Positions 2,410 through 55,667 of a stretch of 56,202 nt of DNA are shown piece after piece. The stretch is from Girardia tigrina. Taxonomy: Eukaryota. The stretch lies in the NCBI GenBank assembly GCA_001938485.1, contig MQRK01219542.1, forward strand, positions 1-56,202, read 5' to 3'. The notes under the pieces were generated by a model. The model was not told where the DNA came from. It saw only the letters and a program-made list of their open reading frames with translations, and did no database searches. The position numbers were made by a program, and so were the translations under genes. Position 1 is the stretch's first letter. Each line of letters opens with the position of its first letter.

Positions 2410-3370
2410 CAGGGTGCGGCAGCTATTTGAGAACACGTAATATAGACACCATATCTTTTTGTGTGTTATAATTACATAATTTTATTTTTGCTGGTAGACA
2501 TGGCAGAAGCTACTCTTACGAATGAAGTGAAAAGGCATGCAGTTATTGTGTCATTAGCAGCAGGACACACCGATTCAGAAATTGCTACATTTTTGAAAGT
2601 CGCCCGGTCGTTTGTTTTTAAAGTTCGTACAGAATTAGGAGCTGCGAAGGGTGATGGGGCTGAAGCTTCGCAACGGNNNNNNNNNNNNNNNNNNNNNNNN
2701 NNNNNNNNNNNNNNNNNNNNNNNNNNNNNNNNNNNNNNNNNNNNNNNNNNNNNNNNNNNNNNNNNNNNNNNNNNNNNNNNNNNNNNNNNNNNNNNNNNNN
2801 NNNNNNNNNNNNNNNNNNNNNNNNNNNNNNNNNNNNNNNNNNNNNNNNNNNNNNNNNNNNNNNNNNNNNNNNNNNNNNNNNNNNNNNNNNNNNNNNNNNN
2901 NNNNNNNNNNNNNNNNNNNNNNNNNNNNNNNNNNNNNNNNNNNNNNNNNNNNNNNNNNNNNNNNNNNNNNNNNNNNNNNNNNNNNNNNNNNNNNNNNNNN
3001 NNNNNNNNNNNNNNNNNNNNNNNNNNNNNNNNNNNNNNNNNNNNNNNNNNNNNNNNNNNNNNNNNNNNNNNNNNNNNNNNNNNNNNNNNNNNNNNNNNNN
3101 NNNNNNNNNNNNNNNNNNNNNNNNNNNNNNNNNNNNNNNNNNNNNNNNNNNNNNNNNNNNNNNNNNNNNNNNNNNNNNNNNNNNNNNNNNNNNNNNNNNN
3201 NNNNNNNNNNNNNNNNNNNNNNNNNNNNNNNNNNNNNNNNNNNNNNNNNNNNNTGGACTTTTACGTGTGGGGCGTAGTTGAGAGGGACTCCAATAGTCAT
3301 TCCCACAACACCATTACAGCTCTCAAATCTGCTATAGTGGATGCAATGGCAAACATTCCAAAGACCCATC
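2410..3370 (+). mobile_element. maT/DD37D-like Tc1/mariner transposon, gapped and 3'-truncated
   Basis: TA followed by CAGGGTGCGGCAGC terminus; ATG at 2500 with HTH-like N-terminus (KRHAVIVSLAAGHTDSEIATFLKVARSFVFKV); DFYVWGVVER motif after the N gap. Confidence 0.8.
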
Positions 3371-3625
3371 TACATCAAATAGGCAGACCATTAAAAGCAA
3401 CAAAAGCATTATTAATTGTTATAGAGCGAACTATAAAGTATTTCTATAACTATACAGATTTAGGAAAACATTAAACATAGTTTTTTTTACTTTTAGGTAA
3501 TATTCTTCATTAATAAATGAAAATTCAATTATATAATATATATACACATATATATATAAAATATATTAAAATTTAAATTATTTTTATTATTTGTTTTTCA
3601 TTAATTTCAAAAATTTAGGCCAACA

Positions 3626-4463
3626 TGTGGCACTGGTTTTTCAAAATATTTTTTGATTGCTGGTGTCAAATATCAATTCAACTATCCGCCAACTGCGGAT
3701 TCCCTATCAACTTTGTTATTTTCCCAATTATCCGCCAACTGCGGATTTTTATCAAAATTCTGCTAATTTCCAATTATATTCCTTTGGGCGATGCAATGAC
3801 GCCGATTGGTTAAACCGATCATCATTCATCGCCCCAGAGGAAAATTTCATTTTTGATTTTTACAATTTTTTATATAAGTTTTTCTTTTTTCTTTTTAATT
3901 TGCATAATAATAATAATAATAATAAAAATTTTAATTATATAAAAATAAAAATAATAATAATAATTATACTTATTTTAATAATAACAATTCCTCTGACGAA
4001 CTTCTCCGCCCAAATCAGGAGTACCCTCATAATGAATGGGTCCCTGAGGAGAAAGGAGAAACTCGCCGAACAGGAATATAATAATTTTAATTCTAATAAT
4101 AATAGTAATAATAATAATAATATAAATAAAGATAGAATTAATAATGTTATAAATGAATATTAAATATAATAATAGTAATAATAATAAAAATAAATAAAGA
4201 TAAAATTAACAATATAAATAAATATTAAATTAATAATGATAATAAATATTTACTAAGATTTATATACATATATATTTCTTTATTATTATTATCCCAATTA
4301 ACCGCCTCGCGTCCCTGAGCAACCTGCTCAAACAAAGGGAAGGTTAAAAATGGATTATACGTATGATTTATTTGATTTATTTATTTACTTATTTTTTCTT
4401 TAACTTTTCATTCAGGACAACATTCCATACACTCTATATTTTTTCATTTATAGGATCGCAACA
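3626..4463. repeat. LTR-like segment containing a cluster of GC-rich hairpins separated by (AAT)n-rich spacers
   Basis: Termini TGTGGC...GCAACA; the right end coincides with the point where the adjacent mariner ORF is cut. Hairpins at 3684-3700, 3730-3746, 3779-3842, 3987-4077 and 4291-4355. No TSD seen. Confidence 0.4.
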
Positions 4464-5620
4464 ATTTCGTCCTCGGAGGGTAGTTTTCATTGGGGAGAAT
4501 AAATAAAAATCGGAGGGAACGAGGTCAGGTGAGTATGGTGGATGGGGCAATACACTGAACCTGATTTTCTGCAGCTTATTTACTGTTTTGTTGGTTGTGT
4601 GGGGTCTGGCATTATCGTGAAGGTAAGTAATTTGTCGAGCTCCTCCTTCCATAAGCCGCCTCCGCTTTTGTTGTATTGCAGCAACAAGACGATCCAGCTG
4701 TTGGCAGTAGGTATCCGTAGTAATTGTTTGTCCATGAGGGAAAACTTCCATTAGCAATACACCTTTGGAGTCCCAAAAAACTGAAATCATGTGCTTTCTG
4801 AGTGTAAGCACACAACTAACTTCAACTGGAGGATTGTCTCCTTCTCCTCACCAAGAACGATGATGTTGTGAGCCTCAATTATCCAAATATATCCAGGATC
4901 TATCTATGGTTACCAGTTGTCAAAGAAAATCAAAAGCCGATCGCTTTGCTTACAGCTCATTGCATATTCTTTCTCGATTAGCCATTTGTTCAGGGGACAG
5001 TAGATGTAGGATCTATAGATTACACAGGTATCTTTTCCCCATCTGAATGAGATGATTTCAAGATGTCTCCGGGGAAATCGCCAACTCAAGTTCTATTGAG
5101 TGATATGTGCTGTATTTGATGACGCTATATTGCAACAGCTGGTTTTGGACAATGTTCATTGACGGCCTTCCAGAGCGCTGTAGATTTTCCACATTAAAAT
5201 CGCCGTTGTTAAACTGTGTTACCCATCGACAGCAAGTGATCTCACTAACAGCACCACTTCCAAGTGCTGCATTCATCTCTTTACATATATCGAGGGGATT
5301 CAAATTACGTTTCCAGCAGTAATATATCATCATTCGAATATCACGTTGACTCAAATTCATTTTAACGCAATGAAAATACAACTTTCAAACAATATTTATT
5401 TTCGAAACAATTTGTTAACTGATATTTTGAAATTAGTTTTCTTACAAAAGGAAAAATTGAATATTTTTTAATTATATTTTACAAAATCATTCGCATATGT
5501 ATATGTTATCTATACTGTAAATATAAAAAATACATTTAAATACTATAAAAAATACATTTATCAATGCGTTTACTAGATAATTATAGAAACCCATCAATCA
5601 AAACTTTCTGGACAGATCTG
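4464..5620 (-). mobile_element. Mariner transposon, frameshifted and 3'-truncated
   Basis: ORF pieces with RSGRP, SVFWDSKGVL, LHDNARPH and HPPYSPDLVPSDFYLF. 5' TIR CAGATCTGTCCAGAAAGTTTTG on the minus strand, flanked by TA (5621-5622). Confidence 0.92.
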
Positions 5621-6458
5621 TACAATTTGATCCTATTTTCCCATAATCATTTATTGTCATCAAAAAGGAGTAATTGTGCACAGTTCGAAGAAAATTGATT
5701 GAGTGAAAAACCTTCAAAAATAGGTTTCTAAATTCCATGGATTCATATGGTTAGGTTCTTGATCGAGATTACAATTCATTAACACAAAAAATTTATTAAT
5801 GACACAAATAACAATTATTTAAACAATTTTTCTTGAGGAACTTTCATTTTCTTTTTTTTAACCAAATTTCATATACATAAAAATATGGAGTTATAAATAA
5901 TGATAAGCTATTTATTAAAACGAGATTTTAGAAATTATTATTTTTATTATTTACAATTCACAAATTTAAAATGTAAAACTATTATTTTTTAATTTAGAAA
6001 TACAATTCTCAAATTTAAAATACAAAATATTATTTTTATTTTAGAAATACAAAAATATTTAGCAATATTTAAATTTATTATTATTTAATAGAGATTCAGT
6101 AATTATAAAATTTTAATAGCAGTTTTTCTATATATATTATATTTTATTAATTATTTATCGAATTTTAATTGGCAGAATTTCTAACTGGTTTTTTTAAATC
6201 TAAATTATCTTTTTTTTATTACATCTCTGACAACAAAACTTTCGTAAAGTTATTCTTCGGAATAACTTTTAAAATAAATGCAAAATAATTAAAACTCAAT
6301 TATTTATGAGAATAACTCTTTTTAAATTAATTGGATATTTAGTTATAACTGTTTTAGAAACTTTTGATTTTAAATATTTTTATTATTTTAGAGATTATTT
6401 ACAAAAATNNNNNNNNNNNNNNNNNNNNNNNNNNNNNNNNNNNNNNNNNNNNNNNNNN

Positions 6459-6497
<39 letters not shown>
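6459..6497. repeat. (TA)n microsatellite adjoining an assembly gap
   Basis: Pure TA run; similar runs at 30078-30102 and 33473-33512. Confidence 0.95.
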
Positions 6498-6500
<3 letters not shown>

Positions 6501-6669
6501 TTGAACCTGTCTAATCCGTCCCTCTTTAATCCTGCAACCTGTCTAATCAGGCATGTCCGAATATCCCCATTTTTCAATCACGGTATTTGTTATGACTCTA
6601 TTCCGGCAAACTGCATATTCCGGTATATTTTAAAATGCCCTGCCATACCGGAATATACAGGTTCTACTG
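6498..6669. mobile_element. Tigger/pogo-type MITE
   Basis: TIRs CAGTTGAACCTGTCTAATCCG / CGGAATATACAGGTTCTACTG, TA on both sides, no ORF. Confidence 0.8.
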
Positions 6670-8152
6670 TATATAGAAAGCAAGCTAATATAAAGAATGG
6701 AGTAAAGTTAATTTTTGACCCTTTTTACGTAAAATGCAAAAACCTATTAGTCTATCTCTGAAACCATAACTATGCTTGGAAAAAATTCACTCCATAAAAA
6801 TGGAAAAAGATTTTTAAACTGATAAAAAGTATTGCATTGTAATTTAAAAGGACATTGTTAATGCTTTTAAGATATGTATTTATTTAATTTAGATTTGAAA
6901 TTTTCCTATTTATAGTTAAAAAGATGTTTATTGAAATTGTCAAAAAGCAGAATATCAACAGTTGAAGCTCTCATTATTCGATCTGAACTAACTTCTCAAT
7001 TTAAACAATAAGTTCAGGGGGAAATTTGATATGATGCATTAAGGTATCTCTAGGCTGAGTGTTCAATTACACATTTGCAGTATTTAGAAGATATCAATTG
7101 ACAAGCAAAATATTATATAGTTTGATCAAGTTTAATAACATTATTAAATGATGCGACAAAATTTCAGTAACAAAATATAACAAAAATCATTTCTTAGATT
7201 GCCTTGAAACACTCGGTGTACAAAACATGTTAAGAAAATTATCGATTTCACCATAGCCTAGTAAAATGTGAAAAGACAAATATCATTTAATTTTTAATAT
7301 TTATTATTTTACAAAATTACACAACATATTTCGTTATGAATAGAACATCTTCAGGTGGTTCATCTAGGCTTCAAATGGATAGTCCATATTTTATCATAAA
7401 AGTTTCAATTATCTCATTTTATCAATATTTTAGAAAATAAATGATATAGGATCACTTTTTTATTTCCATTTTAAGACTTTTCGACTTTGAATTAGAAGAA
7501 AAGATTTCTGAAAGACGTTGTCTTCAATGTTAAATATTATCTCCCCTTAATCAGTTTTACAATAGACGTTCTTTAAAAAGCACTTTTTTCTTTTGATTAT
7601 TTAAACAGAATATTTTTTGAATATTTAAATACGAATACGAAAACCTATTAGTCTCTGAATCCATATCTATATTTGGAAAGATTTCACTCATATAAATGTA
7701 AATATGTTTTTAACAATTTTTTCAATATTTTAGAAAAGCAATGCAAAACTGAATCACTTTTTTCTTGTAGTTATAAAACTAGTAAATCAAAATATTACAT
7801 TTTTTTATATCTTTTATTGATGTAGACAGAACTCTACTTTGCCAACATAGTTTTTAAAATTTAAAACATTTAACATAAAAAAAATTTTAATTAAAAATTA
7901 ATATAAACTACCTATATATAAGACGCGTATTTTCTGAAAATTGGTAATAATTGTAATGGATTAGACGCACGCGAAGATAAGATGCACCCAAGACAAGACT
8001 GACTGTCAACAATTTCTTTGCTGTACGCTGACACACAAGTAGGATAAATGATGCAATAAATGACATTTGAGTAATTATTACAACTACGTAACTATTACAA
8101 CTACGTCGCAGTGATGACCAGCAACTATACATGCCTCCCATTTTATATTATA

Positions 8153-9436
8153 TTAGGTTGGTCGAAAAATAATGGCGGTTTTTGAGCTTTATACTTTGTT
8201 TATCTACTTTGATATGTATATAAGTTTAAATACATTAGTGTTAGATATTATTTGAAATATTATGCCTAGCTGTATATTCCTATAGCCATTATTAACATAT
8301 TGCTGTTATTTTTTAGAATATTTACAGTGCTAAATTAATAATGGAAAAAATTAAAAGTCGAGCAATTTTCTTGTATGAATTTAAACTGGGTCGTAAAGCA
8401 GCAGAAACGGCTCGAAATATCAATAAAGCGTTTGGCAAGGGAACAGCTTCTGAGCGCACAGTGCAACGATGGTTCCGAAAATTTTCTGATGGAGATGAAA
8501 ACCTTGAAGATGAAGAAGGTCGTGGTCGTCCAGTTGCTGTGAACAACGACAATTTGAGGACAATAGTAGAAACAGATCCCCATACAACAATTAGAGAACT
8601 TGCAGATGGGTTGGGCATTAGTCATTCAACATTCCTGGATCACTTAAAACAACTTGGAAAAATCAAGAAACTTGATAAATGGGTTCCACATGATTTGAAT
8701 GAAAATCAAAAGAACCAACGCTATGAAATTTGTTCTGACAATCATCTTCGCAATAGAAACGATCCACTTCTTGACCATATTGTTACCTGTGATGGGAAAT
8801 GGATCCTGTATGATAACCGACGTCGATCTGCACAGTGGTTGGACAAAGATGAAGTACCGAAACACTTTCCAAAACCGAAACTAACACCCCGTAAGGTTAT
8901 GGTGACAGTTTGGTGGTGTTATGCTGGAATCATCTACTATAGTTTTTTGAATCCAGGTGAAACAATCACAGCGGAGAGGTACTGTAATGAAATTGATGGA
9001 ATGCATAAAAAATTGAAAACCCTTTGTCCGGGATTGGTCAATCGAAAAAGTCCCATCCTTCTTCATGATAACGCTAGAACTCATATTTCAAAAGTGACTC
9101 TTCAAAAGCTTAATGAGTTGGGCTATGAAACCCTGCTTCATCCACCATATTCACCAGACCTCTCACTAACGGATTTCTACTTTTTCAGGCATTTGTACAA
9201 CTTCCTACGTGAAAAAATTTTCAAAAACCAAAATGATACTCAAAATGCCTTCCAAGAATTCGTCGCTTCGAGAACCGATGCATTTATGCTGATGGAATAA
9301 AACAACTTGTTTCTCGTTGGCAAAAATGTATTGATGCCAACGGTTTATACTTTGATTAATAAACTTTTGTTTCTGTGAATTTGCACGTCTTTGAAGTTTG
9401 TGTCCCAAAACCGCCATTATTTTTCGACCAACCTAA
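8153..9436 (+). mobile_element. Full-length mariner element (1284 bp), cecropia/Hsmar1-like subfamily
   Basis: Perfect 30-bp TIRs TTAGGTTGGTCGAAAAATAATGGCGGTTTT; TA TSD at 8151-8152 and 9437-9438; inserted in the 5' non-coding part of the pogo element. Confidence 0.97.
8341..9359 (+). pseudogene. Mariner DD34D transposase with one frameshift near the C-terminus
   Basis: 319-aa ORF with WVPHDL, VTCDGKW, HDNARTH and HPPYSPDL. The true C-terminus YADGIKQLVSRWQKCIDANGLYFD* lies in another frame after ~9285. Confidence 0.93.
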
Positions 9437-9494
9437 TATAAGACACCCAAATTTTTCATATTTATACAAACCCTTTTATTAAATTTACCAAATT

Positions 9495-10797
9495 ATGTCA
9501 AAGCAAAGTCATATACAGACGATTTTAAATTAAATGCGATAAAGTTTGCCAAAGAGAAAGGCAATAGAGCGGCAGGTGGACAGTTCAACTGCATCGAGAA
9601 GAATATTCGAGATTGAAGGAAAGAAGACTACAGACAATGAATCTAAGAAAACGATACAAGCGAGGAAGTACAGTGAAATGGCTTAATTAGGAAGAAAATT
9701 TAGCAACCTGGGTGAGAGCACAGCGTGACAACAATCTTGCTGTGTCAACTGCTACCATCAAATTAAAAGCTAGGGTGATGGCATCGGAAATGAAGATTGA
9801 AGATTTCACTGGTGGATATGTAAACTGGGTCTACAAGTTCATGAAGCGAAACCAACTCGTGGTCCGTGCATGCACAACTGTTTACCAGAAGTTGCTAGAC
9901 GATTGGGACCAAAAACTTTCAAGCTTCCACACTTTCATCCGCAGCGAAATTTCCGAAATGAGCCTGACAAATGCAGATATCATCAATATGGACGAGGTTC
10001 CAATGACGTTCGATGTATCACCAAGTAGAACAGGTGCACAGAAAGGAGAAAAGACAATAACAGTTTCAACAACATGGCATGAAAGGACGAATTTTACAGT
10101 CGTTTTGGCCTGCACTGCATCAGGTATCAAACTTAAACCAATGTTGATATTTAAAAGAGTTACAATGCCAAGAGAATCATTACCTGAAGGAGCAGTTGTG
10201 GTCTGCAATAATAAAGGGTGGATGAATGCAGAGATGATGCAGAAGTGGACAGACAAGTGCTTCTGTACGAGACCCGGGACATTCTTTAAGACAAGGTCTC
10301 TTTTGATATTCGAATTGATGGCAGGGCATAAAGAATCCAGCGTACAACGATACATCAACCAGACAGGAACTCATTTAGCCGTGATACCCAGTGGCCTTAC
10401 CATGTTACATCAACCTCTTGATGTGTCAGTAAATCACCCTTTCAAGGCCTATGTCCGTGAAGAGTGGGATAAGTGGATGATGAGAGGACAACATTCATAT
10501 ACTTCGTGCGGTCGTCAGCGCCGTGCGATGTATGCTGAAGTATGCAAATGGGTTATAACTGCGTGGGAAAAAGTTAGAACAGAAACAATTGTGAATGGAA
10601 TCCCAAAATGCGGAATACTACATGATGCAGATGAAAGCGATGGTGAGGATGACGATGATGACGACTCTGTTGCTTCAGATTCCGAGCCAATCGCAGACGA
10701 AGATCGACAGGCACTAGTTATGGACGTCTTTGCCGAGGATTCTGATGACAACGAAAGCTTTAATGGATTCGATGTCAGCTACGACGATAAGAATTAA
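9495..10797 (+). pseudogene. pogo transposase; N-terminus disrupted, DDE_1 domain open (9712-10797)
   Basis: NMDEVPMTFD, FTVVLACTASGIKLKPMLIFK, KGWM, QPLDVSVNHPFK and an acidic tail. Stops and frameshifts lie upstream of 9712, and the second catalytic D appears as E (LLIFE). Confidence 0.9.
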
Positions 10798-15280: not shown

Positions 15281-15912
15281 TAGGATTAATATAATTCAAA
15301 TATATATATGGTATTAAATATATATTGTATTAATATATATTGTATTTTTTTAAAAGTATATAATTCAAAAGGCATTTATTTGTTTTTTAAAGAGATTTAT
15401 ATTTATTAATAAAGGATATATATTTCTTAATAAACCTGTAATAATTAAACAATTACATTTCGTAAAATAGTGTTGTAGATATTCTAAAATCAGATTTTCC
15501 GAATTTAATGTAAAAATTAATTTATGCAAAAAATAAAATAAATTTCACGGTAGGTTTATTAAAAGATTTATTCAAAGATTTATTATAAGGTAATAAAGTT
15601 AATTTTAATTTTGATGGAAATATTTAATTGAAATAAAATAAAAAGGAAAATAAAGTTAAATATTTTATTTTCGAAATGAAAATAAACTAAAGTATTTTTT
15701 GTAACTTTTATTTTACACAATTAAATCGAAATAAATTAAAATGCGATTTTAAGTCTCTGTTCATAGAGAATTTATATCTATTTTTTATTTATAATGGTTT
15801 GTGTAAAAAGAAAGTGTGAAAGTTTCTCAAAAATATTTGTTTAAAAAAATTTAAATTGTTATTGAAATAAAGTTTTGCGTTAATGACATCTTCTTTTGTT
15901 CAAGAACCCAAT

Positions 15913-18900
15913 AATGACAATCGTTCGTTTATTATGTAACAAGAAAATAACCTTTTTTGATCCCCCCCCCTCCACTCGTAACAATCCGTAACAAAACGTA
16001 TGACCCCCTTCTCCTCCATTGCGTAACGTAAAAAATATTTTTTCAAAGTTATATATAATTCATTTTAATGATAATTTTTAGAAGAATTGAAGGTAAGAAA
16101 CGATTACGTTTTCGCAATTTTTACGTCCTGTATTGTAACTGGAATTAATTTTAATATCTTAAAAAATCGAGCAGAAAATTAAGCAAAGTTTGGTGAATAA
16201 CGCATTTTTTTGATTCATCGTTCTTTAGAAAAATGTAAAATACTCACCGTTATCTATCCAGATTTTGAACTTGGCAAAAATTGAGGTATTTGAAGCAATA
16301 TCAGACCAATCTTCCTATTTTTTCGATAAGATAGGTTATGATTATATTTTTTTATATTATCTAGTTTTAAAATATTTGAATTTAATAAGTTAATTGTATT
16401 AAATATAGAAGTTTTCTATTGGGAAAATCTTGACTAAAGCTTGAGAGTTTTGCTACATATATTGTTCACAAAAGTTGTAAAAATGTAATAAATTCGGTTA
16501 TTTATTAATATACCCCTGTATAAAAACTATTCGATTTTAAATAATCACAACTCGATCAATTATTTATAAAAATTGATGATTTTTTCACAAACTTACAGTA
16601 AATATTGTTGGTTATATTTTAAAAGTACTAGAAAAAGGACAAACTAAAGAAATATTTTTAAAAATCAAAACACTTTCAAAAATAAATTTTGTACTTTTTG
16701 CAGACATCATTTATTCATTTTCCCAAGGGTTTAAACACTGATTTAAGTCAAAAACTGGTATGGAATCCTCGGACGATTTATCAAAATTTATTGTTGAATC
16801 CACTATCACATCATCCATATCTACCCATTCGCATGTCTACAATCCTGGTGATTCTTCCGTAATGACCATAAATTCTCTCTCACACTGACATAGCACTCGT
16901 TTTATCTAGTCTTTACAGCAGGAGAAATCACTTCTTGGGAGTGAATATTTTTATGATTGCTTAATAAAGTAAGGAATGCAAATATATTTTGTGCTTCTTA
17001 CATGTTCTTGATTGAACTTTGTCATTGACACTAGGATAATATTGGTCAAATGGTGATTCTTGTGATCCAAAATTAAGGCTTTGAAATAGTGAAGTATATT
17101 TCAATTTGCTGATATCCATCGATTCAATTTCAATCATTGGAGCATAATGTAGATTAATTGAGGCCGGCAAAATCTTGATTTAATGATTTTATGAAATTTA
17201 CTCCAAATGGTTCCACAGCAATTCATGTCTAAACAATATTTACAATTTATGTCATGTATTGAGTTGATCGAACGTGTTTGGCAATCCAAGATTCTGATTT
17301 GTGAATTAAATTAGTTGATTCCAACTCGGAGCTATCGCGATCAATAAATTCAGTAACGGTTTCGTAAGAATCAATGATGACATTTGAGAAAACTTCGCAT
17401 AATACTTCTCCAGCAAATTTAAAATTCTTGTATTCTAAATCATTATTTATAGTTTTTCCATTTGAGTCAAGATGGGTACCATAATTATCATGTGGAATAA
17501 TGAGTCCTGACAGTTGTTTTGAAAGAGGAGCCATTCGACGTTCTACTGGATTGAATGCACTGCGCTGGGGAGCATTAGTAGATTTGAAGATCGCATCAAG
17601 ACTACGTTCGATGAAATGATGTATAGCTGTTTCAATTACTTTTTGATAACGCGGATTTTCATCTGGACCACTATCAACTAAAATTATCATTACACGTTTT
17701 GGTAAATTATTTTCACCAAAAAGAAATCGTTTGAACTGATCAACGTCATATAAACGTTCAAAATTTTTAGCATGCGAATATGCGGTCGAATGAAAATGCT
17801 TTCCTGATCTTACAGCGATATATGTAGGATCAGAATATTGAACTGCATTTGGATCAACAAAGCCGTTGTTATCAATCGTTAATGCAGCATAAATTGAATG
17901 TATCAACTTGTGTTGCTGAGCAATAACCCAATCATGATCAGAAAGTTAGACTCGATATTCCATGTTCATCAACAACGGCGCTTGACAATTAGTTGCAGGT
18001 AAACCAAAAGGTACTTTTGCCTTATCGTCTTGACTAATGATCGATACTTCCTCAGGACCTAAAAATGATGCAAGCTCACGGAGATTATTGAAAGTAGCTG
18101 TGCAAAAAAACAGAACCCTGGTGACTTTTATGATTATCTCGCAAGTCCCTGATTAGGCGAACTGGAACTATTTTAACATGTTTTTTCCATCAATAGAACG
18201 AGAGTTTCTTGGTTGAAGATGATAATACACCGTTGATCTACCAATTTCAAAACCTTCTTGTCTCATGGAATCTTTAAGCTCACTTAAAGTCTTGATAGTT
18301 CTTAAAATTTCACATCGATGTTTTTCATCAGCAGCTGCACTTAAAGTAGCTATTTTTATGATTGTGGTGAGCAGTTCAGGCTGTTTATCCGTAATATCAG
18401 GTCTTCCCTTTCTAGACCGAATCAGCATTTTTGAAGCAGTTTCTGGGTGCTCTGTTAAAATTTCATCATTCAAGCGTTTTATCTGAGCTCGACATTCCTT
18501 TTGTCGTTTCTGTTTATCCTGAGCATTTTTAGTTCCTTTTCGAATTCCTTTAGTTTCAGTTTGAGAGATTTAAACTTGACTTGATCATCAAAAGTTAATA
18601 AATCAGCATTATCTTGTAGTGAATATCCAGAAATGTCGGCTCTTACAATTGAAATCTGTTGACTGATGGTGTTTTGTTTGGGACATTCTAGAAAATTAGT
18701 AATTGGAATAGTAGATGTAGACTCAGCAGTATAAATATATTTCTATCGAGAATTGCTTGTTGAAGGCACACTGGTTTCTTTACTAGCACTGGATGTAAAG
18801 AACGACATCAATGAACCTTTTCCTTTCGTCTTGGAAAGTTCGTTCATTTTCGATTCATAGAGGACATGAAAATCATTTCTTGCTTTGATTGAATTGCAGT

Positions 18901-18997
18901 ATTCGTTGCATTTTTGCTGATTTTGTTGCTTGGAAATAGTAGGATAAGTTCGCTTATATTCCTCGTGGAGTTTTTCATACAATGATTTCTTGTCCAT
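15913..18997 (-). mobile_element. Probable Zator-superfamily DNA transposon; pseudogenised transposase at 16711-18997
   Basis: Collinear minus-strand ORF fragments with SQDDKAKVP, DHDW, LVDSGPDENPR and SAFNPVERRMAPLS. Degenerate terminus ATCGTTCGTTTATTATGTAAC with CGTAAC subterminal repeats at 15913-16030; opposite TIR not found. Confidence 0.7.
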
Positions 18998-20002
18998 AAT
19001 TCTTCAAATGAAAAAATTAAATTGTTATTTTATTTTGAGAATTGTTAAAAGTCCCATACCTGATTTTTGTACAATTTTAAAAAATGAAGTGAAAAGTTTT
19101 TGAAATCATTTAAAAATTAAAATATTTAAACACATTGTTTTTTAACAAAATTAATTAATAAATTAAATTAAATGTTTTTTTCGAAAATAACCGTTGTAAA
19201 TTTCATCATATTTTCAAGACACGAATTTAAGGTTTTACTTACCCACAATTGTTCGACACGATCATGAATTACTGTTTCTGAAGGTTTTTGGCGATAAGAA
19301 TCCTACATCCCTATAAATGAATTGCAGACGACTTGAATTTGCTTTTGATTTGGGAATTGGCTTTTTATATTACCGACTAATGATTTAGGTTGTTTGAGAT
19401 TGTTGTGGGGCAACAAGAAACACAACACTGATATTGATGATATATTGTTTATCCTAATTTCTATTTTTATTTACTACTTATTTATTATTTAAGTTTATAC
19501 TATTATATCATTTTAATATCTAATAGATCTTCCTACATATTAAAAAATTAAACTTTAAATTTGAGTTCGAAAAGAACTTCGAGTCTTCGAAATTTTTCAT
19601 TCCGATCTACTCATATTTTTAAATATCGTTTCTTTAAAAGGCGTCTTTAAAGAAATAAACTGGTTTTAAATGATTGTTTTGCATTTTTGGTTCACTAAAG
19701 TTGATTTAAGTCACTTCTCAATTTTGTTTATTTGTAAAAACATTCTGTTGTACTACTAAATATCCTGATTTAGTTTTAACATAACATATTCTGAAAAAGT
19801 GCATTTTATTGAAAGATATTCTTTTTTTAAGACAGAATGAAATGTAGAGCAATAATGCAAAATAAATTATTTTATTATGTAACAACCTTTCGCAACCCCC
19901 TTGGAAATACTTTAAAATTACTTTTGTTGGGGTCAAGTATTAACGTTCGGGCCCATAAGAACGCGCCCCGAAATTCCAGCTCACAATCTCCAATTTTGGT
20001 GC

Positions 20003-20494
20003 TTAAGAGAACCGATTTCTTTCGCAATTATTTGAATCACTTGAGGAACCACCGATGAAATAATCTGGTTGAAACAATTTCCCAAGATTCAAATTCAGTA
20101 TGTAATCGAGAGTAGTACTGTTCAATTCAACCATGATGCTGATCGGCACACACTTTCCATGAATTCCAGAAGCAAAGTAAACGTAAATTCTACGTAATTG
20201 CAAATCACTGTCACTTTCGTAAACACCAGTGGTCGATTTGACAATGTGTTCGATGATGGTTATTTTACAAAACGTCATTCCAATACTGTTTCTACAACTT
20301 TGAAATATTCTCATTAATTCATACCATTGATCATGAATGTCTTCACAATTTTTAATAGGTTCTGAATTTTCGTCAGTTTCTTTGATATGTAATCTCCGAT
20401 CGGGAATTCTTACATGATTATTTTCAAATGTCTTCATAAAATAATCCGCATTAAAAATATAGTCAAATGGAAAATTCATCTCTTCTCTAAACAT
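20003..20494 (-). CDS. Hypothetical 163-aa protein
   Basis: ATG-to-stop uninterrupted ORF with globular-looking composition in very AT-rich DNA; no motif recognised. Confidence 0.55.
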   Translation of the reverse strand: MFREEMNFPFDYIFNADYFMKTFENNHVRIPDRRLHIKETDENSEPIKNCEDIHDQWYELMRIFQSCRNSIGMTFCKITIIEHIVKSTTGVYESDSDLQLRRIYVYFASGIHGKCVPISIMVELNSTTLDYILNLNLGKLFQPDYFIGGSSSDSNNCERNRFS

Positions 20495-20609
20495 AATTTA
20501 TGTTGAATTGAATATATTTATTACTATAATTAAAAATCGATATTTCTATATCTTTTATTTTTTATCAAAATGTAATTATAATTAATACATTATAACAAAA
20601 CATTATTAA

Positions 20610-21043
20610 TCAGATTTTTTTTTCGACCATGGGTCGATGTACCGACATTGGGACTGAGTGTCTTCTGTAGTCCTCAAATTCCTCATTGAGTCTAGATAAT
20701 TGGACCTCCTTTTAATCATTTAATTGTTTCAATATCTGGATTTCTTGAAGGAGCCGTTGATTTTCTTTTGACAGGGCTAGAATCTGTGACTCGTTTTTGC
20801 TCACCATAATTTGTATTCCTAAAAGAGAAGAATGACAATGACGATGAACATTTCNNNNNNNNNNNNNNNNNNNNNNNNNNNNNNNNNNNNNNNNNNNNNN
20901 NNNNNNNNNNNNNNNNNNNNNNNNNNTGGTGATATTATAAAATGTTTTGGGGAGTATTACCTCCTCTTCAGCTGCCAGATCGTCAATAGTCGCGGCAGGC
21001 ACTAAAAGCACCTGCCGTTACCTGTCGACAGATCGGCGGCCAT
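20610..21043 (-). pseudogene. Spliced coiled-coil gene remnant
   Basis: Donor GAG|GTAATA at 20960; polypyrimidine acceptor TTCTTCTCTTTTAG ending at 20819. The last exon reads SQILALSKENQRLLQEIQILKQLND*KEVQLSRLNEEFEDYRR with one in-frame stop; an N gap lies inside. Confidence 0.4.
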
Positions 21044-21799
21044 CAAAACCTCAACTCTCCGTCCTCCACAAAACAAAAAAATTTTACCAAAAACGGAGTC
21101 CAAAAATGAGTAATTTGTTTATTTTTTTTCTAACAATTACAAAAATCGAGCGCATTTATATACAAAAATCAAAACTCATCAAACCAAAAACAAGACATTC
21201 TCATGAAAGAGAATACTTTGCATGTCCAAAATGTTACTGCAAGTATAACCTTACAGAAATTTAATAGGNACCCTTGTCAAATCAAAGTCTTTAGGTGTCC
21301 CAGAAAAAAGATAATTAATAANTGCAATTAATTAAACAAGGAATGCGTGGGCGTCTATTAATTAATTTCTTCCATTAATTAGGTCATTACAATTAATCAA
21401 TTAATTAAATAATTAAAATTGACGCCCAAGCAAATCCTGGGATCCCAACAAAATCAATCTGTGCGAGACAAACCAAACTCGAAAAATTGTTAGCAAATAC
21501 TCGTCAAATAACATTGAAGAAAAATTGTTCATGAAAAAATTTTTTTTAATTCCGTTTTTTTATGCCAAACAAAAATCCTATTTAACTCAAAAAATGTTTA
21601 AAATAATAAAATTCAAATTGCATCATAAACGTCATCATTTAACAATTGCAATGAAAAAAATGTTAATCAGTTTAAACAATCGATTGGGTTACGCTTTCTC
21701 ACACTACCCAATAAAAAACGGCATATATACATTCATACACGGCACATCAACTGGCCAAAATAAAATCCGCCAATCCAATAATAATAATTATTTAATTTG

Positions 21800-22680
21800 A
21801 ATCCCGAACGACAATTCTTCATAATCTTTACCACCGCAAGGAAGTTTCTAAGTTTTGTTAGGAGTGAAAGGCGAATCGAAAACAGAGAGAGCAAAAACAC
21901 AGGAATATTTGAAGACATAGGCATATGAATAGCCTCAAGTTTGACTTAATGGACTCATAGTTGATGTTTTGAAAATATTTAGTGATTTACAAATGTAGCT
22001 ACAGCGTGACGACTTGATTCTACCAGAGATAACAAGCAATAGAGATTCGACACTTCGTAAATTAGACCTTTCATCCACGGCCCCCTATCCCGGTGGAGAG
22101 GAAGAGAAACTACAGCCCCATGAAACAGAGACTCATTTTAAGAGCTATTAATACGAATATGCCAACTACAAGAAATCAGAGTGGGGTGCGAATCGAAATA
22201 GTATAATCAACAAAGAATTATCTTGGAGAGCGGTTTGATATGGAGCAAGAATATAGTTCAAGACATTAACTCTTTTGCAAACAGGAGAACTCGAAGCATT
22301 TATTAAGGCAGCAGTCAAAATAAAAGGACGTTTGTTTTCTCAAGAAATACTGCGCTTTGCAGATGACTGTGTTGAGCAATGGCCAATAAATGCTTTACCC
22401 TAATTGATGTTGAAAACTTTCTAAAGTAATATCGTCTTCGGTAACACTCACTCCTCACAGCATGCTTTCTGAGAGGATTGTTTTTTTTATATAACTTGAA
22501 TGTTTCAACCCATCGCATAAGCACCTCAGCTGAGACAGAGAACTCTTGCATGATGATCGCAATGAATACAAAGGGGACACGTCAGTTTGATCTTCGAAGT
22601 GCTGTGGCACAATTCTTCTCGGATATTTATTCAGAAAGAGACTTCGTTGCCAATTATGTTTTAAAAATTAACGTGTCGAA
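21800..22680 (+). pseudogene. hAT-like transposase C-terminal remnant
   Basis: Fragments VLKIFSDLQM*LQRDDLILPEI...PYPGGEEE and PHSMLSERIV...SAETENSCMMIAMNTKGTRQFDLRSAVAQF resemble the hAT dimerisation region. Confidence 0.6.
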
Positions 22681-23447
22681 GTGTTGTACAATAAAACTCG
22701 TGTTGGACTGTTCGTAAAATGTTATGGGTCGGGTGACTTGTGCATTTTCTTCTTTTAAATCTGAGAACAAGTGATAAAAAAACTGTTTGGAATTGGAAAT
22801 ACCCTTATAAAAAAAACAAGGAAAAATAACTATTTTTATCCGAGTTAAAAAAGTTACCGTATTTCAGTATACGACCATTCCAGATTACTTGTGCTCCCCC
22901 AGTGAAAATTTCTTTAAAAAGGTCCTGTCAGGAATCTTAAAGGATGGTCATGTCAAAGATAAAAGAAGTTTTTAATGCAAATCGTCAAAACGGGATTCCA
23001 CATAGCTTTTCTGTTATGCTGTAAAATGTTCTTCAAAAAAATTCCTTTAAAATACTTTTTTGATTTAAAATGCTGATTTTACAAACTTTTGACTAAATTT
23101 TAATTCAATAAATCAATTTATCAATTTGAAAGACGATTCTGACAAGGTTGCAACTGGAAGTGTCTATGGAGAAGCTAAATCAGAAATTATGTTGTATTCT
23201 TAATGATAAAACTGTTCTTGACGTCAACCAACGGAAAGATATTGAAAATAATGAAATAAAAAGTAAATAAGAATTTATTGAAGGGGAAATGGTTACGAAC
23301 ATGAATCTGATATTTATTACAGTGAAAATTTAATAATTTCTTTTGAATATTATCACATTTGGTATTTTGTTGTGCAAGCACTCTTTGTAGTATGCTTTAC
23401 AAAACTTTATTGTTCAATACTGACAATAAATAATATAGTTTTAAATA

Positions 23448-24695
23448 CAGTGTGAGCCAAAAGTCCTTTAAACATTTGAAACTTGCCTAAATAGTAAAAA
23501 AATAACAATATCAACAAAAAACCTTTATTTTTCCATAAACAAATTTATTAAAATAAAAATTTTTGACAGAGGAACCATCCAAATCAATGCATCTTTGTAA
23601 AGGAGCACTAAATGAATTAACTGCATTTTTCAACATCTTAGTATCAATTAAGGGGAATTATTCTTGAATGGCATCTTTCAGCTGCTGCAATGAATTTTAA
23701 CTCTCTGTATAAACTAGATCTTTCAAATAGCCCCATAGAAAGAAATCCATAGGGCTACTATTTGGAGACCGTGCAGGTCAAACGATTAGACAACATCTTC
23801 CAATCCAATGCTGTGGAAAATTTCTATTCAAAAATGTTCTCGCGTCTCTTGAGTAGTCCGTTGGGGCTTCATCTAGCTGAAATATTTTTCTTAAATAAAA
23901 TCGCTGCATGTTTAATTCTGGAATAAAACATTTTACATTATCTTTTTAGTAAGTACCATTAATTGTGCTACTATGGAAAAAGGAAGAACCATAAAATTTT
24001 CTACTTGAAATACCAACGCAAATATTTACATTTGGACTGTAGTACACTTATGTAAAGTTTTCTTTTACAGTACTTGTTTCTCACATATGAGTGTTGTGAC
24101 GATTAACACAACCATGTAAATTAAATTAGAAAAGACCACATTATCCAAAAAAATTGAAATCTTCATTGATATTCCCAAGTAAATCCTAGCTCATATAAAC
24201 TCTTGATGCTCTGTATTCATCAGATAACTTATTTAGGATTTGATATTTGTATGGATAGTAAAGTTATGTTTTTCTTAAAGTTTTTCTGTAGGAACATTTC
24301 AATTCCTATACTTGTATTCAAGCCACCGTATCCACTCCAATACGATTTTGTCTTTCATTTCCTTAATTTGGGTGATCGGATTTGTGATAATCAGAAACTG
24401 AGTCAGTTTCTGTGAAGCAAATAAATGTGTAAATTACTGTTTGATACGAAGGAATGTTTTTCCAACCAGATTTTTTCGATTGCCGCTAGACAGTGGTGTA
24501 TGATTCATACTTTAAATACAAAAAACGATTTATACTCTTTCTTTTAAACTGAATATTTCAAAATGGCGCCCAAAAAATATAAACAAAATATATTTCTAAC
24601 TTAAAAAAATTGTTTATTGAAATATAAAACATTTTTTGTTGATATTGTTATTTTTTCACTATTTAGATAAGTTTTAAATTTTAGGACTTTTTTGG
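23448..24695 (-). mobile_element. rosa/DD41D-like Tc1/mariner transposon, decayed, with long TIRs
   Basis: TA followed by CAGTGTGAGCCAAAAGTCC...; ~65 bp of imperfect inverted match at 24630-24695; QLDEAP...HWIGR...PARSPNSSPMDFFLWGYLK. Confidence 0.85.
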
Positions 24696-25023
24696 TATTT
24701 TAAGTCCGAATAAAGGTCGATGATCAATTATGGGTAGTTTGAGAGGGTCACAAATACAAAAAACAAATACAAGCCCATGGATCCTTTTACAGAAATCTCC
24801 GGTTAATATTTTCAGACAAAGTAAAATTTTCATACAAACTAAAATTATTGTCAATAAAAACAATTGATTATATTTAAGTAATATAACACTTCAAAATAAT
24901 GGAATAATTTGTTGTTTGAATCAGTAATATATCTGACTGAATAAAAGGTTATGAATGGTTTATAATACACTTGATATCCAGTTTCTGTTCGGTTTAACAA
25001 ACCTTTAACTTAATCAAGAAAGC

Positions 25024-26385
25024 TCATTTGATATTCAAATCGACAACTGAAGATGGCGCTGATTTAATGTTTCGTCTGAGAGAGATTAAAGGATATCGTC
25101 GCAACAGCGATTTCGTTGCTTGAATAAAAGGTCTTGGAGATTGTGTTTTGCCGTTTGGATTCTTATGAAAATTCGAAGTTTTTTCTAACTTTTTCTTTGA
25201 ATATTTTGTAGATTTTAGTTGAGATGTCGAAAGTTCGGCATAGTTTAAACCGTAGTTTTTTATTCTTGTCGAATAACTAAACCCACTTATATTGGGAGGA
25301 GTGGGAGCATCTAAAATTCTGTTCCTTCGTTTTAAATATGGATCATTAAGATGTAATATTGACGTAATGGGGAATGGTGGTGTTATATTTAGTTGACTTT
25401 GGGATGTTTCCATTCTCACATCTGATGATCCACTGAGATCTAGAGCTTCGGTTTGTGGTTCGGAATTAACGACAGTTTGAACTTGAAGAGGTTTACTAAT
25501 CAATAATGGTGATTTAGAAGAATTTTCCTTCATATTCTGAGTTTGTCGGTAACCGTATTTATAAAGAATATCAATTATTTCCGGAGCGTTTTTAAATATT
25601 GGTATAGGAATAGGAATAGGAACAGGAATGTAAAGAGGTCCGGAGACCGGTATTTTAACTGGCTCTGTTGATTTTGCATGTAAATTAAAATTTGTTAACG
25701 AAGGAGGCGGACGAGAATTGAGAAAATCTGCATAATTATTAAAGGTATGATAAAGTGGATTTAGGTTATGTTGTGTTAGATTTGAGATTTGTGGACCCAA
25801 AGATGTATCGGAAGGAAAGATACGTTTAGCCGATTTATGAAACTTGGTGAACGATGAACAACGAGATTTCTTTAAAGGAACAACGGGAACGTTTTTGTTC
25901 GTTTTATTTGTAGGAGTTGGAATTTTATTCCCATTTCCGGATTTTTTCTCATCACTGTGTTTCGATCCAGTTACAGATTCCGAATCAACATCGAGAATAT
26001 TTTCTTCTTTCTTAATTAACAACACATCCGATGTTTCTTTTTCGAAAACCGTTTTTTTGTAATTATTCAAACATATATTATTACAGAAATGCAATTGTTC
26101 AACACTTGCAATACAACCGTTTTCGTTTGATTCAATAGATTCACTTTTATTAGACGTTTTCGATGTCGCGCTATATTCACTTCCGGATTTCGTTCCAGTT
26201 TCGGAAAGAGATACTCTGTCGCACCAGTCACAGGTTTTACCACGCTTGAAAGATGCCCGTCTGGACAACTCGAAACATTTTTCACTACAAAATGATTTCT
26301 TGATTTTGTCATTTCCAGGATAGTTAATGAAAATATTCTCTGAAACTGTGATATCACACCAACCACATATTGGCACTCTAGTCAT
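25024..26385 (-). CDS. SOBP: Sine oculis-binding protein homologue (SOBP), ~453 aa, single coding exon
   Basis: Two FCS-type zinc fingers: CGWC...SFCSEKCFELSRRASFKR and CDWC...LHFCNNICLNNYKKTVFEKET, plus the PVPIPIPIPI proline box characteristic of SOBP. First in-frame ATG at 26385 (the ORF track starts at a non-ATG codon at 26496). Confidence 0.92.
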   Translation of the reverse strand: MTRVPICGWCDITVSENIFINYPGNDKIKKSFCSEKCFELSRRASFKRGKTCDWCDRVSLSETGTKSGSEYSATSKTSNKSESIESNENGCIASVEQLHFCNNICLNNYKKTVFEKETSDVLLIKKEENILDVDSESVTGSKHSDEKKSGNGNKIPTPTNKTNKNVPVVPLKKSRCSSFTKFHKSAKRIFPSDTSLGPQISNLTQHNLNPLYHTFNNYADFLNSRPPPSLTNFNLHAKSTEPVKIPVSGPLYIPVPIPIPIPIFKNAPEIIDILYKYGYRQTQNMKENSSKSPLLISKPLQVQTVVNSEPQTEALDLSGSSDVRMETSQSQLNITPPFPITSILHLNDPYLKRRNRILDAPTPPNISGFSYSTRIKNYGLNYAELSTSQLKSTKYSKKKLEKTSNFHKNPNGKTQSPRPFIQATKSLLRRYPLISLRRNIKSAPSSVVDLNIK

Positions 26386-27109
26386 ATTTATTGAATTATC
26401 TACAAAGAAATTTGATTCAAATATCGAGTTAGAATTATTGAAAAAAGATTTTAATTTGATATTGGAAGAAATAGATAGAGAAAATTTTATGTACAAGTGT
26501 TAAATTTCGAGAGAACTGCCACGTAAGTTGTGTTAATCAATGGACTTGAAAATGGTTTCAATTTACAGTCCTTGATAAAGTATTGGATTACATTGTGAAA
26601 TGAAAACTATACAAACAAATTTCATTTATTTTTTGACAAGAAATAACAGTCTCAACAACATTTCGTCATTGTTGAATAAATGTTTTCAGGAAATCATTCC
26701 TATCACTTGGAATGAAAACGATATATTATGTTTTATTAAGATTGAATTTCAACTCGTTGAGATTTTGCTGTACGAAAAAGAAAAACGAAAATTATCGATT
26801 CTCGAATTTCTCAGTAATTTTAAGAGAAATTACTCTTTTGGCAAAATTTTTTTATCAATTGATTTTATTATTTTAGTATAACATTGAAATTTTATCATTC
26901 CTTCATTAAACATAGGTTACAATGAATGAAAAAGAAATTATATTTCCTGGTCGAATTTTCATTTTCAACATTTTATTCTTTGCTTTTCATAAACAGACGA
27001 AACAAAACGATTATTTAACATATGTTTTTGCTTGATAAAAATAAACAAGAAATAAATATTTGAAATTATTTTAATTTAAAATTTTTGAATGTTTTTTCTT
27101 AATCTAAAA

Positions 27110-28326: not shown

Positions 28327-29302
28327 GTAATTTATTATCATCATTATTATCATCATTATAGATTGTTTCAAAAAAAATTTAAAAAAAACAAAAGAAATAT
28401 AAATAATAAATTATAATTTTTTTGAAATATTATTTTATTTTAATAGAAAATTTTTATTTATTTATTTTAAATATTTACTTTGTGTATTTTTAATGTTAAT
28501 AATCAAGTTGAAGTACCTAATTACAAAACCGCGAAATTGAAATCATTTTGTAGAATAGAAAACTCATCCTTTGAAACAGCAGAGATTCTATTTTTATAAT
28601 GTATCCAGTGATAAAGAATCTGACTTGATCGATTTTATTGTAAATGCTTTTTATTTATATTTTTATTTTATTTTATCATTTACGGTTTTTATTTTATAAT
28701 TTTATTGAAATAATTTATAAGTACTGATGACAATTTAGGAGATATTGAAACATGTACAATGATTATATTTTGAAACAAGCTTTAAGTTAATTATTTTAAA
28801 ATATTCGTCTTAAAAACTAAGATGGACGACATTCCGCAATTCCCTCTTTCAAAAGTGGCTTCTACTTAATAATAACCCTTACGATTTCAAATGAAATCCA
28901 TATTATTTTTCTTTGGTATAAAACATCTGAAACTATTTGAATTCTACAGGGTTTAAATCAAGTAAAATATTGAAAGAAATGTAAATCTATAGACTTTCAA
29001 AAAATTGATATATCGTAAAGAAAAATATATTCATTTATTATTACTATTACAGGGTTTTTCATTTTACTTATTCCATTTTAATTTGAAAAGAAATTAAAAG
29101 CATATGAAGCCCTTAAATAAATGTTTTCTTCGGTATTTCGAGCGATATGAACTAGTTAAACTCTTAAAACTATAGTTGAATTCATTTATAGTTCTATAAG
29201 ATTATATAAAAATACTGGAAGAAAGATTTCGAATAAGAAAGCAAATAGAGTAGGTTATAAATTGCTCATCGACGAAGTAAAAAATCTGATCCATATATAT
29301 AC

Positions 29303-29419
29303 AAGCATCCCGAGGAGCCAGGAATGATCTGGTTTTTCTCAGACGAGAAGAACTTTGTTCAGGACCAAAAGGTGAATCGCAAAAATGATCGGTGGCTGTG
29401 TAAAACACCGGATGATGTA
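29303..29419 (+). pseudogene. maT/DD37D-like transposase fragment running into an N gap
   Basis: KHPEEPGMIWFFSDEKNFVQDQKVNRKNDRW (first catalytic D motif FSDEK). Confidence 0.8.
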
Positions 29420-30139
29420 NNNNNNNNNNNNNNNNNNNNNNNNNNNNNNNNNNNNNNNNNNNNNNNNNNNNNNNNNNNNNNNNNNNNNNNNNNNNNNNNN
29501 NNNNNNNNNNNNNNNNNNNNNNNNNNNNNNNNNNNNNNNNNNNNNNNNNNNNNNNNNNNNNNNNNNNNNNNNNNNNNNNNNNNNNNNNNNNNNNNNNNNN
29601 NNNNNNNNNNNNNNNNNNNNNNNNNNNNNNNNNNNNNNNNNNNNNNNNNNNNNNNNNNNNNNNNNNNNNNNNNNNNNNNNNNNNNNNNNNNNNNNNNNNN
29701 NNNNNNNNNNNNNNNNNNNNNNNNNNNNNNNNNNNNNNNNNNNNNNNNNNNNNNNNNNNNNNNNNNNNNNNNNNNNNNNNNNNNNNNNNNNNNNNNNNNN
29801 NNNNNNNNNNNNNNNNNNNNNNNNNNNNNNNNNNNNNNNNNNNNNNNNNNNNNNNNNNNNNNNNNNNNNNNNNNNNNNNNNNNNNNNNNNNNNNNNNNNN
29901 NNNNNNNNNNNNNNNNNNNNNNNNNNNNNNNNNNNNNNNNNNNNNNNNNNNNNNNNNNNNNNNNNNNNNNNNNNNNNNNNNNNNNNNNNNNNNNNNNNNN
30001 NNNNNNNNNNNNNNNNNNNNNNNNNNNNNNNNNNNNNNNNNNNNNNNNNNNNNNNNNNNNNNNNNNNNNNNNNNNNNATATATATATATATATATATATA
30101 TATTTCAATAACATTTAATAAAATAAAAGGAAACTGTTC

Positions 30140-30830
30140 GATGTGAAAAATAAAAATGTTTCAGTCTCCACCATGTTTAGAACTATAGATGAATCCAACT
30201 ATAGTTTTAAAAGAGTTCAAATAGTTCCTATAGCTAGAAATGCCGAATCAAACGTTTATTTAAGAACTTCATATGTTTTTGATTTATTTTCAAAGGAAGA
30301 AGATAATCTAGTTTTTATAGATGAAATGGGTGGAATAGTGGAAAAGTGAATGGAACTTGAGAGGTACAACTCCAAGAAAGCCTGTCAAAAATATACATTG
30401 CAAAAGTTAATCAATTTGTGCAGAAATTACAAAAAGAAGCCTTTTATATTTTAAAATTCAGTTCATTATGTTGCAGACAGATTTAGTTCACTTATCAATG
30501 ATCTCTTAAATTTTATTCATGAAAGAAATCTTTCAAACATGATCTTAGTAATGGCCAATAGAACAATACACAAGGTTGATACCCTGAGGAACATGTTTGA
30601 AGAAAATGGTTACCAAATTTCTTTTATCCCGCCATACTCTCCTCAATTAAACCAAATTGAGGAAGTTTTCTCCAAGTTGAAGTCACATTAAAAGATTTAA
30701 TTGTAATAATTCTGAAAGAATTAATTCAGCTTTTATAAGTGGCAGTTTTACTCTAAATGAAGAAAACTGTGTTTCATATTTTAATCATACGAAATAGTTT
30801 GCTGTTAAAGCTTTAAATGATGAGGATTTT
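30140..30830 (+). pseudogene. Tc1/IS630-like DDE transposase remnant
   Basis: VSVSTMFR...NYSFKRV...LVFIDEMG and later PPYSPQLNQIEEVFSKLK. Confidence 0.8.
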
Positions 30831-55587: not shown

Positions 55588-55667
55588 CACATAATAATAC
55601 AAGCACATGAGCAAGTATAATTTGAAATAGAATATAGATATGATAAAAGTGATCAATGTAATCACTA

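Follow-up and report, generated by a model that had tools for sequence, protein, structure and literature searches.

A mosaic repeat of Girardia tigrina with a PP1/beta-tubulin chimeric reading frame and a spliced coiled-coil gene: the case for a Helitron2/Helentron-like element

Introduction

What kind of repeat carries two co-oriented genes, one of them spliced, and no gene for its own movement? The question is raised by a 1.5-kb unit on contig MQRK01219542.1 of Girardia tigrina, of which positions 1 to 56,202 (the whole stretch that was analysed, referred to hereafter as the window) were considered. An initial annotation, made from the letters of the window, had delimited the unit by TG...CA termini and interpreted it as an LTR or as a non-autonomous or virus-like unit carrying accessory genes of its own. 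The reading favoured here, to which we give somewhat better than even chances, is that of an old, recombinant, non-autonomous copy of a Helitron2/Helentron-like element (i.e., HINE, DINE-1-like) with stepwise gene capture. Read from left to right, such a unit would consist of a T-run, a 5' inverted repeat with its hairpin, a 3' inverted repeat and a probable 3' hairpin, with the ORFs lying on the opposite strand.

Data and scope

The copy-level evidence comes from public proteins and from the contigs and reads of runs X1, X3, X11 and X21 placed on 19200-21268; read placement ended at 21268, so that the right arm of the unit (21438-21453) lies outside the covered range. Papers marked as excerpts are represented by parts of their text, and what is attributed to them holds for those parts. 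Within the window, self-BLAST found no second copy of the unit. The absence of gag, pol and transposase from the unit, already stated in the initial annotation, was confirmed, in that none of the six read-through frames of 20501-21462 yielded a Pfam family; the same was true of all 18 read-through frames of 16001-19902 and 20501-25052 in which a RepHel partner was sought within the window. In Rfam, nothing over the unit reached the gathering score, and a hammerhead core is absent by eye.

Outside the window, viral contigs (0 of 238 and 0 of 224 candidates, with 0 pattern matches) and prokaryote genomes (0 matches in one search and 0 of 108 candidates in another) gave nothing. The sole metagenome candidate to pass out of 397 (L001, alignment A2) was a bacterial sensor-kinase-like frame at 29% identity and was rejected. 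The element is absent from run X21 (organism E; a sample of about 1% of the reads), where the 14 reads found are all partial and less than 90% alike. Placement covered three of the 20 runs listed as carriers, and the other 17 have no weight as to habitat or host range. Horizontal transfer among the remaining three runs is not supported, since the left flank is also closely common to all of them, with differences of 3/175 in X1, 23/~526 in X3 and 8/376 in X11; for the same reason, the sources of these runs look like close kin.

Surroundings of the unit

The window is AT-rich animal DNA, rich in transposon remnants, plus one exon of SOBP, a large exon at 25024-26499 (-) that belongs to a divergent homolog of the sine oculis-binding protein (30-39% to all 36 matches). 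To the left of the unit, a broken transposase at 17247-19003 (-) retains the motifs DDKAKVP, DSGPDENPR and NAPQRSAFNPVERRMAPLS, which we take to be of Sola2 type, and has no Pfam match; a terminal-like G-run sequence is found near 15909-16030. A tie between the unit and this remnant was considered and discarded, the resemblance of 15909-15942 to 19850-19885 having an E-value of 0.025 and the motif count being at chance. Further away there are a young-looking mariner copy (8148-9441; TIRs perfect over 35 bp, ORF of 319 codons), a 339-aa ORF of the pogo/Tigger-type DDE_1 (9778-10797), and a broken hAT transposase (48438-49638, +; Dimer_Tnp_hAT, E 1e-12). Two remnants with Tc1-like motifs, at 23471-24682 and 29161-30213, are bounded by TIRs (89 nt at 78% and 36 nt at 92%, respectively). 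The window's real LTR-element remnant is likely to be 50149-53014, where a 69-nt direct repeat (94%, 2.8 kb apart) surrounds a GC-rich stretch; its frame at 52374-52688, without a Pfam match, carries a motif that we assume to be integrase-like. The window closes with tandem repeats of 95-519 nt, broken up by N gaps (54852-56202).

Ends of the unit

Both of the motifs from which the unit had been delimited, TGTTGGG at 19925 and CCCAACA ending at 21450, are indeed present. Nonetheless, TG...CA cannot be kept as the edge, because the T/A runs outside it belong to a perfect 10-bp repeat. The true end repeat is TTTTGTTGGG, at 19922/21453, with 10 bp perfect and 12 of 13 positions paired when one mismatch is allowed, whereas 7-bp inverted pairs 1-2 kb apart are trivial in the window (11,579 pairs, 353 of them starting with TG). 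The left arm (19922-19934, +) begins TTTT, as part of a T-run, and is a candidate 5' ATIR or subTIR at which read depth steps up; the right arm (21438-21453, +) contains a candidate 3' ATIR at 21441-21453 and overlaps the palindrome TGGGATCCCA. Inverted repeats in the 8-15 bp range that characterizes Helitron2/Helentron elements are found at both ends, and what is found instead of the canonical Helitron1 ends (5' TC and 3' CTRR, without inverted repeats) are inverted repeats with T/A runs. According to the excerpts, Helitron2 has 8-15 bp ATIRs, the 5' one pairing with downstream nucleotides (PMC3627910, excerpt), and DINE-1 has an inverted repeat 3-22 bp from the 5' subTIR, T-rich ends and no site modification (PMC4067079, excerpt).

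The secondary structures near the ends are of unequal weight. The large inverted repeat that had been reported near one end stands (21344-21432, imperfect; z -4.44, equalled in 0 of 200 shuffles; self-BLAST E 2.7e-8). It is built around TAAT/ATTA-rich sequence, the density of these words being 19 per 100 nt in 21312-21420 vs 2.5 window-wide, and its best Rfam match reaches 25.8 bits vs a gathering score of 67. The GC hairpin proposed near the other end (19942-19968, 6-bp stem) is also there, inside the high-copy block, but it is insignificant when taken alone (z -1.54, 18 of 200 shuffles as good). The candidate 3' terminal hairpin, with a 4-bp stem and a 10-nt loop, lies 10 nt past the right arm (21464-21481, +) and is equalled in at least 48 of 400 random windows (at least 12%). 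A reversed orientation, with its 3' hairpin at 19888-19908, was also tried; that hairpin is weak (44 of 200 shuffles), and the orientation, which stays a minor option, is disfavoured because the depth in X1 is explained by a start at 19931, X3 and X11 fitting less well.

The terminal hairpin becomes apparent in sister copies. All five listed joints at 19929-19930 (four in X1 and one in X11) have a net gain of 33 nt over the window, and these extra bases bring the end motif, reversed, about 12 nt inside the arm, closing a 9-bp stem whose second arm, CCAACAAAA, is perfect in two of the five joints. The window copy has, at 19929-19931, the site of a 33-nt deletion that took away the ~12-nt loop and the second arm. 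The pairing of the 5' repeat with nearby downstream bases, a feature of Helitron2/Helentron, is present in the sisters and deleted in the window copy. The five hairpin contigs may descend from one insertion, given that they also match the left flank, which is itself repeated.

As for the marks left by other classes, no TSD of 2-10 bp (and hence none of the 4-6 bp that had been proposed as a check) was found at any of three boundary choices in this one copy, and neither a PBS nor a PPT adjoins either end on either strand. The symmetric arms of 10-13 bp at both apparent ends bring to mind a Pack-TIR or MITE-like cut-and-paste element with short TIRs, which would have captured its cargo by gap filling or by a fork-stalling template switch and whose TSD would have decayed. 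A terminal hairpin made from the TIR is not known as a feature of such elements. The lack of a TSD also speaks against them, with the proviso that decay is possible in one old copy, and so does the window, which holds no matching transposase ends. On the other side, many copies are less than 95% alike to the window copy, and animal Pack-TIRs with microhomology and chimeric ORFs have been described (PMC8277862, excerpt). All in all, a Pack-TIR/MITE-like nature is regarded as unlikely.

Copy number and mosaic structure

The claim of a repeated, non-autonomous unit holds, and high copy number sets in only a few bases away from the left end that had been proposed. In X1, 3,576 contigs fall on 19200-21268 (667 at 99% or more, 1,060 at 95-99%, 1,263 at 90-95% and 586 below 90%). 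Their summed depth, which by the method's own caveat is not a copy number and is used as an order of magnitude only, rises from 1,200-6,600 in 19200-19820 to 14,134 in 19821-19889 and 160,846 in 19890-19958, fitting a start at ~19931, adjoining the left arm (375,673 implied vs 357,475 seen). The public contigs represent a high-copy mosaic family that starts near 19922-19931.

Within the unit, depth varies more than 100-fold between blocks. Its median over the 163-codon ORF is 156x, 48x and 16x that of the left flank in X1, X3 and X11, respectively, and over the coiled-coil gene (gene 1) 32x, 2x and 0.4x. The AT-rich, low-copy spacer that separates both modules (20487-20618) is at flank level, with 2,201 in X1 bin 20511-20579 vs 200,000-750,000 over the ORF. 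The block at 20925-21062 is common to gene 1 and to the abundant family, and the X1 depth in bin 20994-21062 is 495,861; here lies an 11-bp GC hairpin with two G-T pairs (20993-21017, -; z -2.0, 8 of 200 shuffles), in a block common to the most abundant family members. Two loose-end consensuses, one behind 20486 (16 contigs) and one ahead of 20975 (30 contigs), show an overlap of 7 letters. From this it would seem that the commonest form lacks gene 1, with the 20975-21062 block attached straight to the ORF; none of the listed contigs spans such a join.

Two further observations concern the flank and the sister copies. The left flank (19200-19900) is a moderate repeat itself, rich in deletion variants, which account for 9 of the 15 listed joints. 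In X1 it is as deep as the spacer at 20487-20618, so it may have been amplified together with the composite. In sister copies, the tubulin fragment is directly followed (20000-20018) by a 6-bp hairpin, of which there are two versions distinguished, by eye, by a compensatory pair; it is broken in the window copy.

Is there one mobile unit at all? The alternative is that host-gene families and repeats were amplified separately and that parts of them lie side by side, with a right arm that matches by chance. The strong differences in block depth, with gene 1 below the flank in X11, would suit it, as would the 416 ten-base inverted pairs found 1-2 kb apart in the window, 30 of them with at least four G/C. 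However, the depth step at the left arm is sharp, the window has only three occurrences of the arm motif, two of them at these ends, and the block 20925-21062 is found both in gene 1 and in the abundant family; such a juxtaposition is considered very improbable.

The PP1/beta-tubulin chimera

The 163-codon ORF (P0001; 20003-20494, -), which had been regarded as an intact accessory gene, is instead an in-frame chimera of two host-gene fragments. The first, at 20289-20488 (-), comes from the N-terminus of a divergent Ser/Thr phosphatase of PP1 type and lacks 19 internal residues: ORF residues 3-67 match the N-terminus of P0017, a PP1 catalytic subunit (E 4.7e-99), across a 19-residue gap (38 of 84 columns identical, E 1e-22). 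The second, at 20012-20288 (-), derives from beta-tubulin (PDB phmmer E 5.7e-16), ORF residues 66-161 matching its residues 11-105, with beta-tubulin in all 60 best rows of 78. Presumably, the tubulin fragment stops short of the GGGTGSG loop. Neither part amounts to a functional version of its parent, since the tubulin part is limited to residues 11-105, with 35 of 69 conserved columns changed, and the PP1 part ends at about residue 90 of 371, the Metallophos domain being 71-283 in P0017. Start and stop of the ORF differ from those of its relatives, of which P0002, P0003, P0154-P0157 and P0005 begin with MSNLK and whose C-terminal ends differ. One listing gives a tubulin Pfam label to two of four relatives of the ORF, and for annotators this means that copies of the element give false tubulin and phosphatase gene calls.

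The relatives also inform about how the chimera may have arisen. Eight of the ten family proteins are chimeric, and the other two (P0005 and P0009) share the gap but go on as PP1. Likewise, three X11 contigs, read by hand, depart from the window at 20289 and then continue as PP1, which places the junction (20289/20288) in codon 69. Both parents read Cys-Gly-Lys/Asn at this point, so a switch at what would be about eight shared bases would keep the frame. Five relatives have a further common deletion of 27 residues, which appears in X11 as an 81-nt skip. Judging from these sequences, the relatives would record the order PP1 alone, fusion and deletions.

The orphan coiled-coil gene

Gene 1 had been described as spliced, and this is supported by its GT/AG signals, the joined frame and the contrast in divergence between intron and exon. 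Its putative first coding exon comprises 7 codons and 1 nt (21022-21043, -) and is joined in frame, across a putative GT-AG intron that contains a 72-N gap (20819-21021, -), to the 5' part of the main exon (20613-20818, -). Clade differences affect 5 of 15 residues of the putative intron vs 26 of 273 of the exon (p 0.014), in agreement with an intron; no spliced read was seen across 21021-20819. A second GT...AG of 20 nt (21002-21021, -) overlaps the hairpin at 20993-21017 and is also in frame, but it is probably no intron. Upstream of both ORFs there is a TATAAA box (21155-21160, -), the sole match in 20560-21170, which might act as a promoter.

A 46-residue query from gene 1 retrieved P0195 (289 aa, 93%) and P0196 (337 aa, 89%), two of three candidates, with 89-93% to the main exon. 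In the cluster of 16 members, 15 reach the same C-terminus, some 200 residues beyond the window copy, which keeps about 130 residues from the start of the read-through frame and is broken at 20619, the position at which X11 record 15 and X3 record 21 also depart from the window. The premature stop at 20712-20714 is found in the window copy only, and is a sense codon in 20 contigs of three runs. The protein has two heptad stretches, and its structure model is all helix (mean pLDDT 57, pTM 0.22); no match of weight was found in Pfam, PDB, PHROGs or Atlas, the best PHROG (E 7e-4) lying over the coiled coil. Since its depth is low in X11, gene 1 could be either the element's own or a captured host gene. 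That the unit carries a spliced coiled-coil gene, with intact relatives, is supported; the other of the proposed accessory genes, the chimera, is captured host sequence.

Could this orphan gene be the mark of another, or even an undescribed, class of non-autonomous element (e.g., of tyrosine-recombinase type), whose three copies of the end motif form a circle? The lack of a family match, the three motif copies, the T-runs and the missing TSD would agree with it, while the repeats are only 10-13 bp long, the intron is retained and no recombinase is seen. DIRS terminal repeats are far longer than 10-13 bp. This is a doubtful explanation.

The retained sense-strand intron favours DNA-level copying, and it weighs on the interpretation as a solo LTR or deleted LTR retrotransposon, whose host-fragment cargo would have been captured from mRNA by template switching. 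In its favour, TG...CA does lie inside the repeat, the TATA box and the inverted repeat resemble an LTR promoter region, LTR elements are reported to give rise to in-frame chimeras of several parents joined at microsimilarities (PMC5131818, excerpt), and planarians have giant LTR elements with accessory ORFs (PMC6431247, excerpt). Moreover, the joining of fragments without visible introns at a short common stretch is a signature of LTR template switching too (PMC5131818, excerpt), which counts against the favoured class. Nevertheless, TSD, PBS and PPT are missing, the repeat runs into T/A runs, the sisters have a hairpin made by a third, internal copy of the end motif, and depths differ more than 100-fold between blocks, apart from the intron itself. 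The LTR or virus-like nature initially proposed is not upheld by these features, and an LTR origin is deemed rather unlikely.

Decay or selection

The copies of the chimeric ORF look like decaying cargo. Among the best 40 of 194 differences by support, nine lie within the ORF, and the codons of the window copy that differ from the majority are non-synonymous in 5 of 8 cases vs 67% expected at random. Family members deviate at 41-58% of the 69 columns conserved in tubulins, vs at most 25% in real tubulins (142 of 147 rows kept), and in two X1 contigs the ORF contains replacements that break its frame (net 46 and 40 nt). Seven relatives of the chimera keep a long frame with in-frame deletions, in a set chosen by open-frame search. 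Variation among four lineages affects 23 of 69 conserved columns vs 12 of 20 variable ones (p 0.04), and one of five pairwise tests gives p 0.03; this mild lean to tubulin-variable columns is unlike pure neutrality, and codon composition or the bias of the open-frame search could explain it. Selection on the ORF is, for the most part, without sign.

The chimeric form is the deepest block in all three runs carrying the element. A bolder proposal, which we hold to be quite unlikely, is that an abundant Helitron2-like derivative, from a family with a spliced coiled-coil gene, transcribes a selected PP1/beta-tubulin chimera from the element promoter. Its product would be either a peptide, acting as a poison of tubulin folding or as a competitor for PP1 partners, or a mass of small RNAs directed at tubulin and phosphatase transcripts of the germline, in a conflict system similar to that of Stellate and borne by a transposon.

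Proposed stepwise capture and comparison with known systems

If the unit is Helitron2/Helentron-like, its history could be reconstructed as follows. A long family carrying the TATA promoter and the spliced coiled-coil gene would have given rise to a derivative in which the 5' end of a host PP1 gene replaced most of the coiled-coil gene and lost 19 codons. A template switch at the common Cys-Gly-Lys/Asn codons would then have replaced the rest of PP1 by beta-tubulin, the frame being kept without selection, and the short form would have been amplified in trans by an unseen RepHel transposase. In the window copy, a truncated gene 1 would have been joined to the PP1-tubulin module, followed by neutral decay.

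How does such a unit compare with known systems? Bat Helitrons with sequential capture are of the canonical TC...CTRR type. They resemble the present family in the stepwise capture from different host genes and the later amplification of new subfamilies (PMC4224331, excerpt), and differ from it in that both fragments form one reading frame here. The likeness to DINE-1/HINE lies in particular features, namely 12-15 bp subterminal inverted repeats, an inverted repeat 3-22 bp from the 5' repeat, a palindromic arm, T-rich ends, no TSD and high copy (PMC4067079, excerpt); unlike them, the unit carries an orphan gene that is spliced and an ORF fused from two parents, and its 3' stem-loop is only a candidate. 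With Helitron2 (PMC3627910, excerpt) and FoHeli1-5 (PMC5148889, excerpt) it shares short asymmetric inverted repeats, one arm in a hairpin, no fixed TSD and ORFs that are sometimes reversed, but there is no RepHel in the unit and no empty site was seen for its proposed ends. Antisense ORFs are reported in the Helitron2/Helentron group (PMC4067079 and PMC3627910, excerpts).

Chimeric retrocopies mediated by LTRs likewise combine two parents, a short common junction sequence and an in-frame product (PMC5131818, excerpt), in contrast to the situation here, with no flanking LTR pair, TSD, PBS or PPT and a neighbouring gene with a sense intron. Pack-TIRs such as Ssk-FB4 are also multicopy DNA elements with captured coding sequence, but theirs have long TIRs and 9-10 bp TSDs (PMC8277862, excerpt). 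Stellate retains protein-coding function and is linked to piRNAs, neither of which is seen here. What both have in common is the amplification of a chimeric host-derived ORF, with possible Helitron help in the case of Stellate/Su(Ste) (PMC7874207, excerpt).

Significance

Such gene capture is already known, and the PP1/beta-tubulin cargo was not found described: the titles and abstract openings listed (in one search the first 20 of 76) contain no PP1-tubulin chimera in a transposon, supplements and Repbase entries being outside this scope, and the family may be catalogued in either of them without its cargo noted. Gene capture by non-autonomous Helentron-type elements is reported to be uncommon, and Helentron gene fragments were found in two genomes only (PMC4067079, excerpt). 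If the family turned out to be an LTR or another class of element, the orphan spliced gene would become the main point of interest. Under the Helitron2/Helentron-like reading, the value of the family lies in the steps of capture that seem to be preserved among its relatives, from the PP1 fragment and its deletion, through the in-frame switch to beta-tubulin, to more deletions and amplification.
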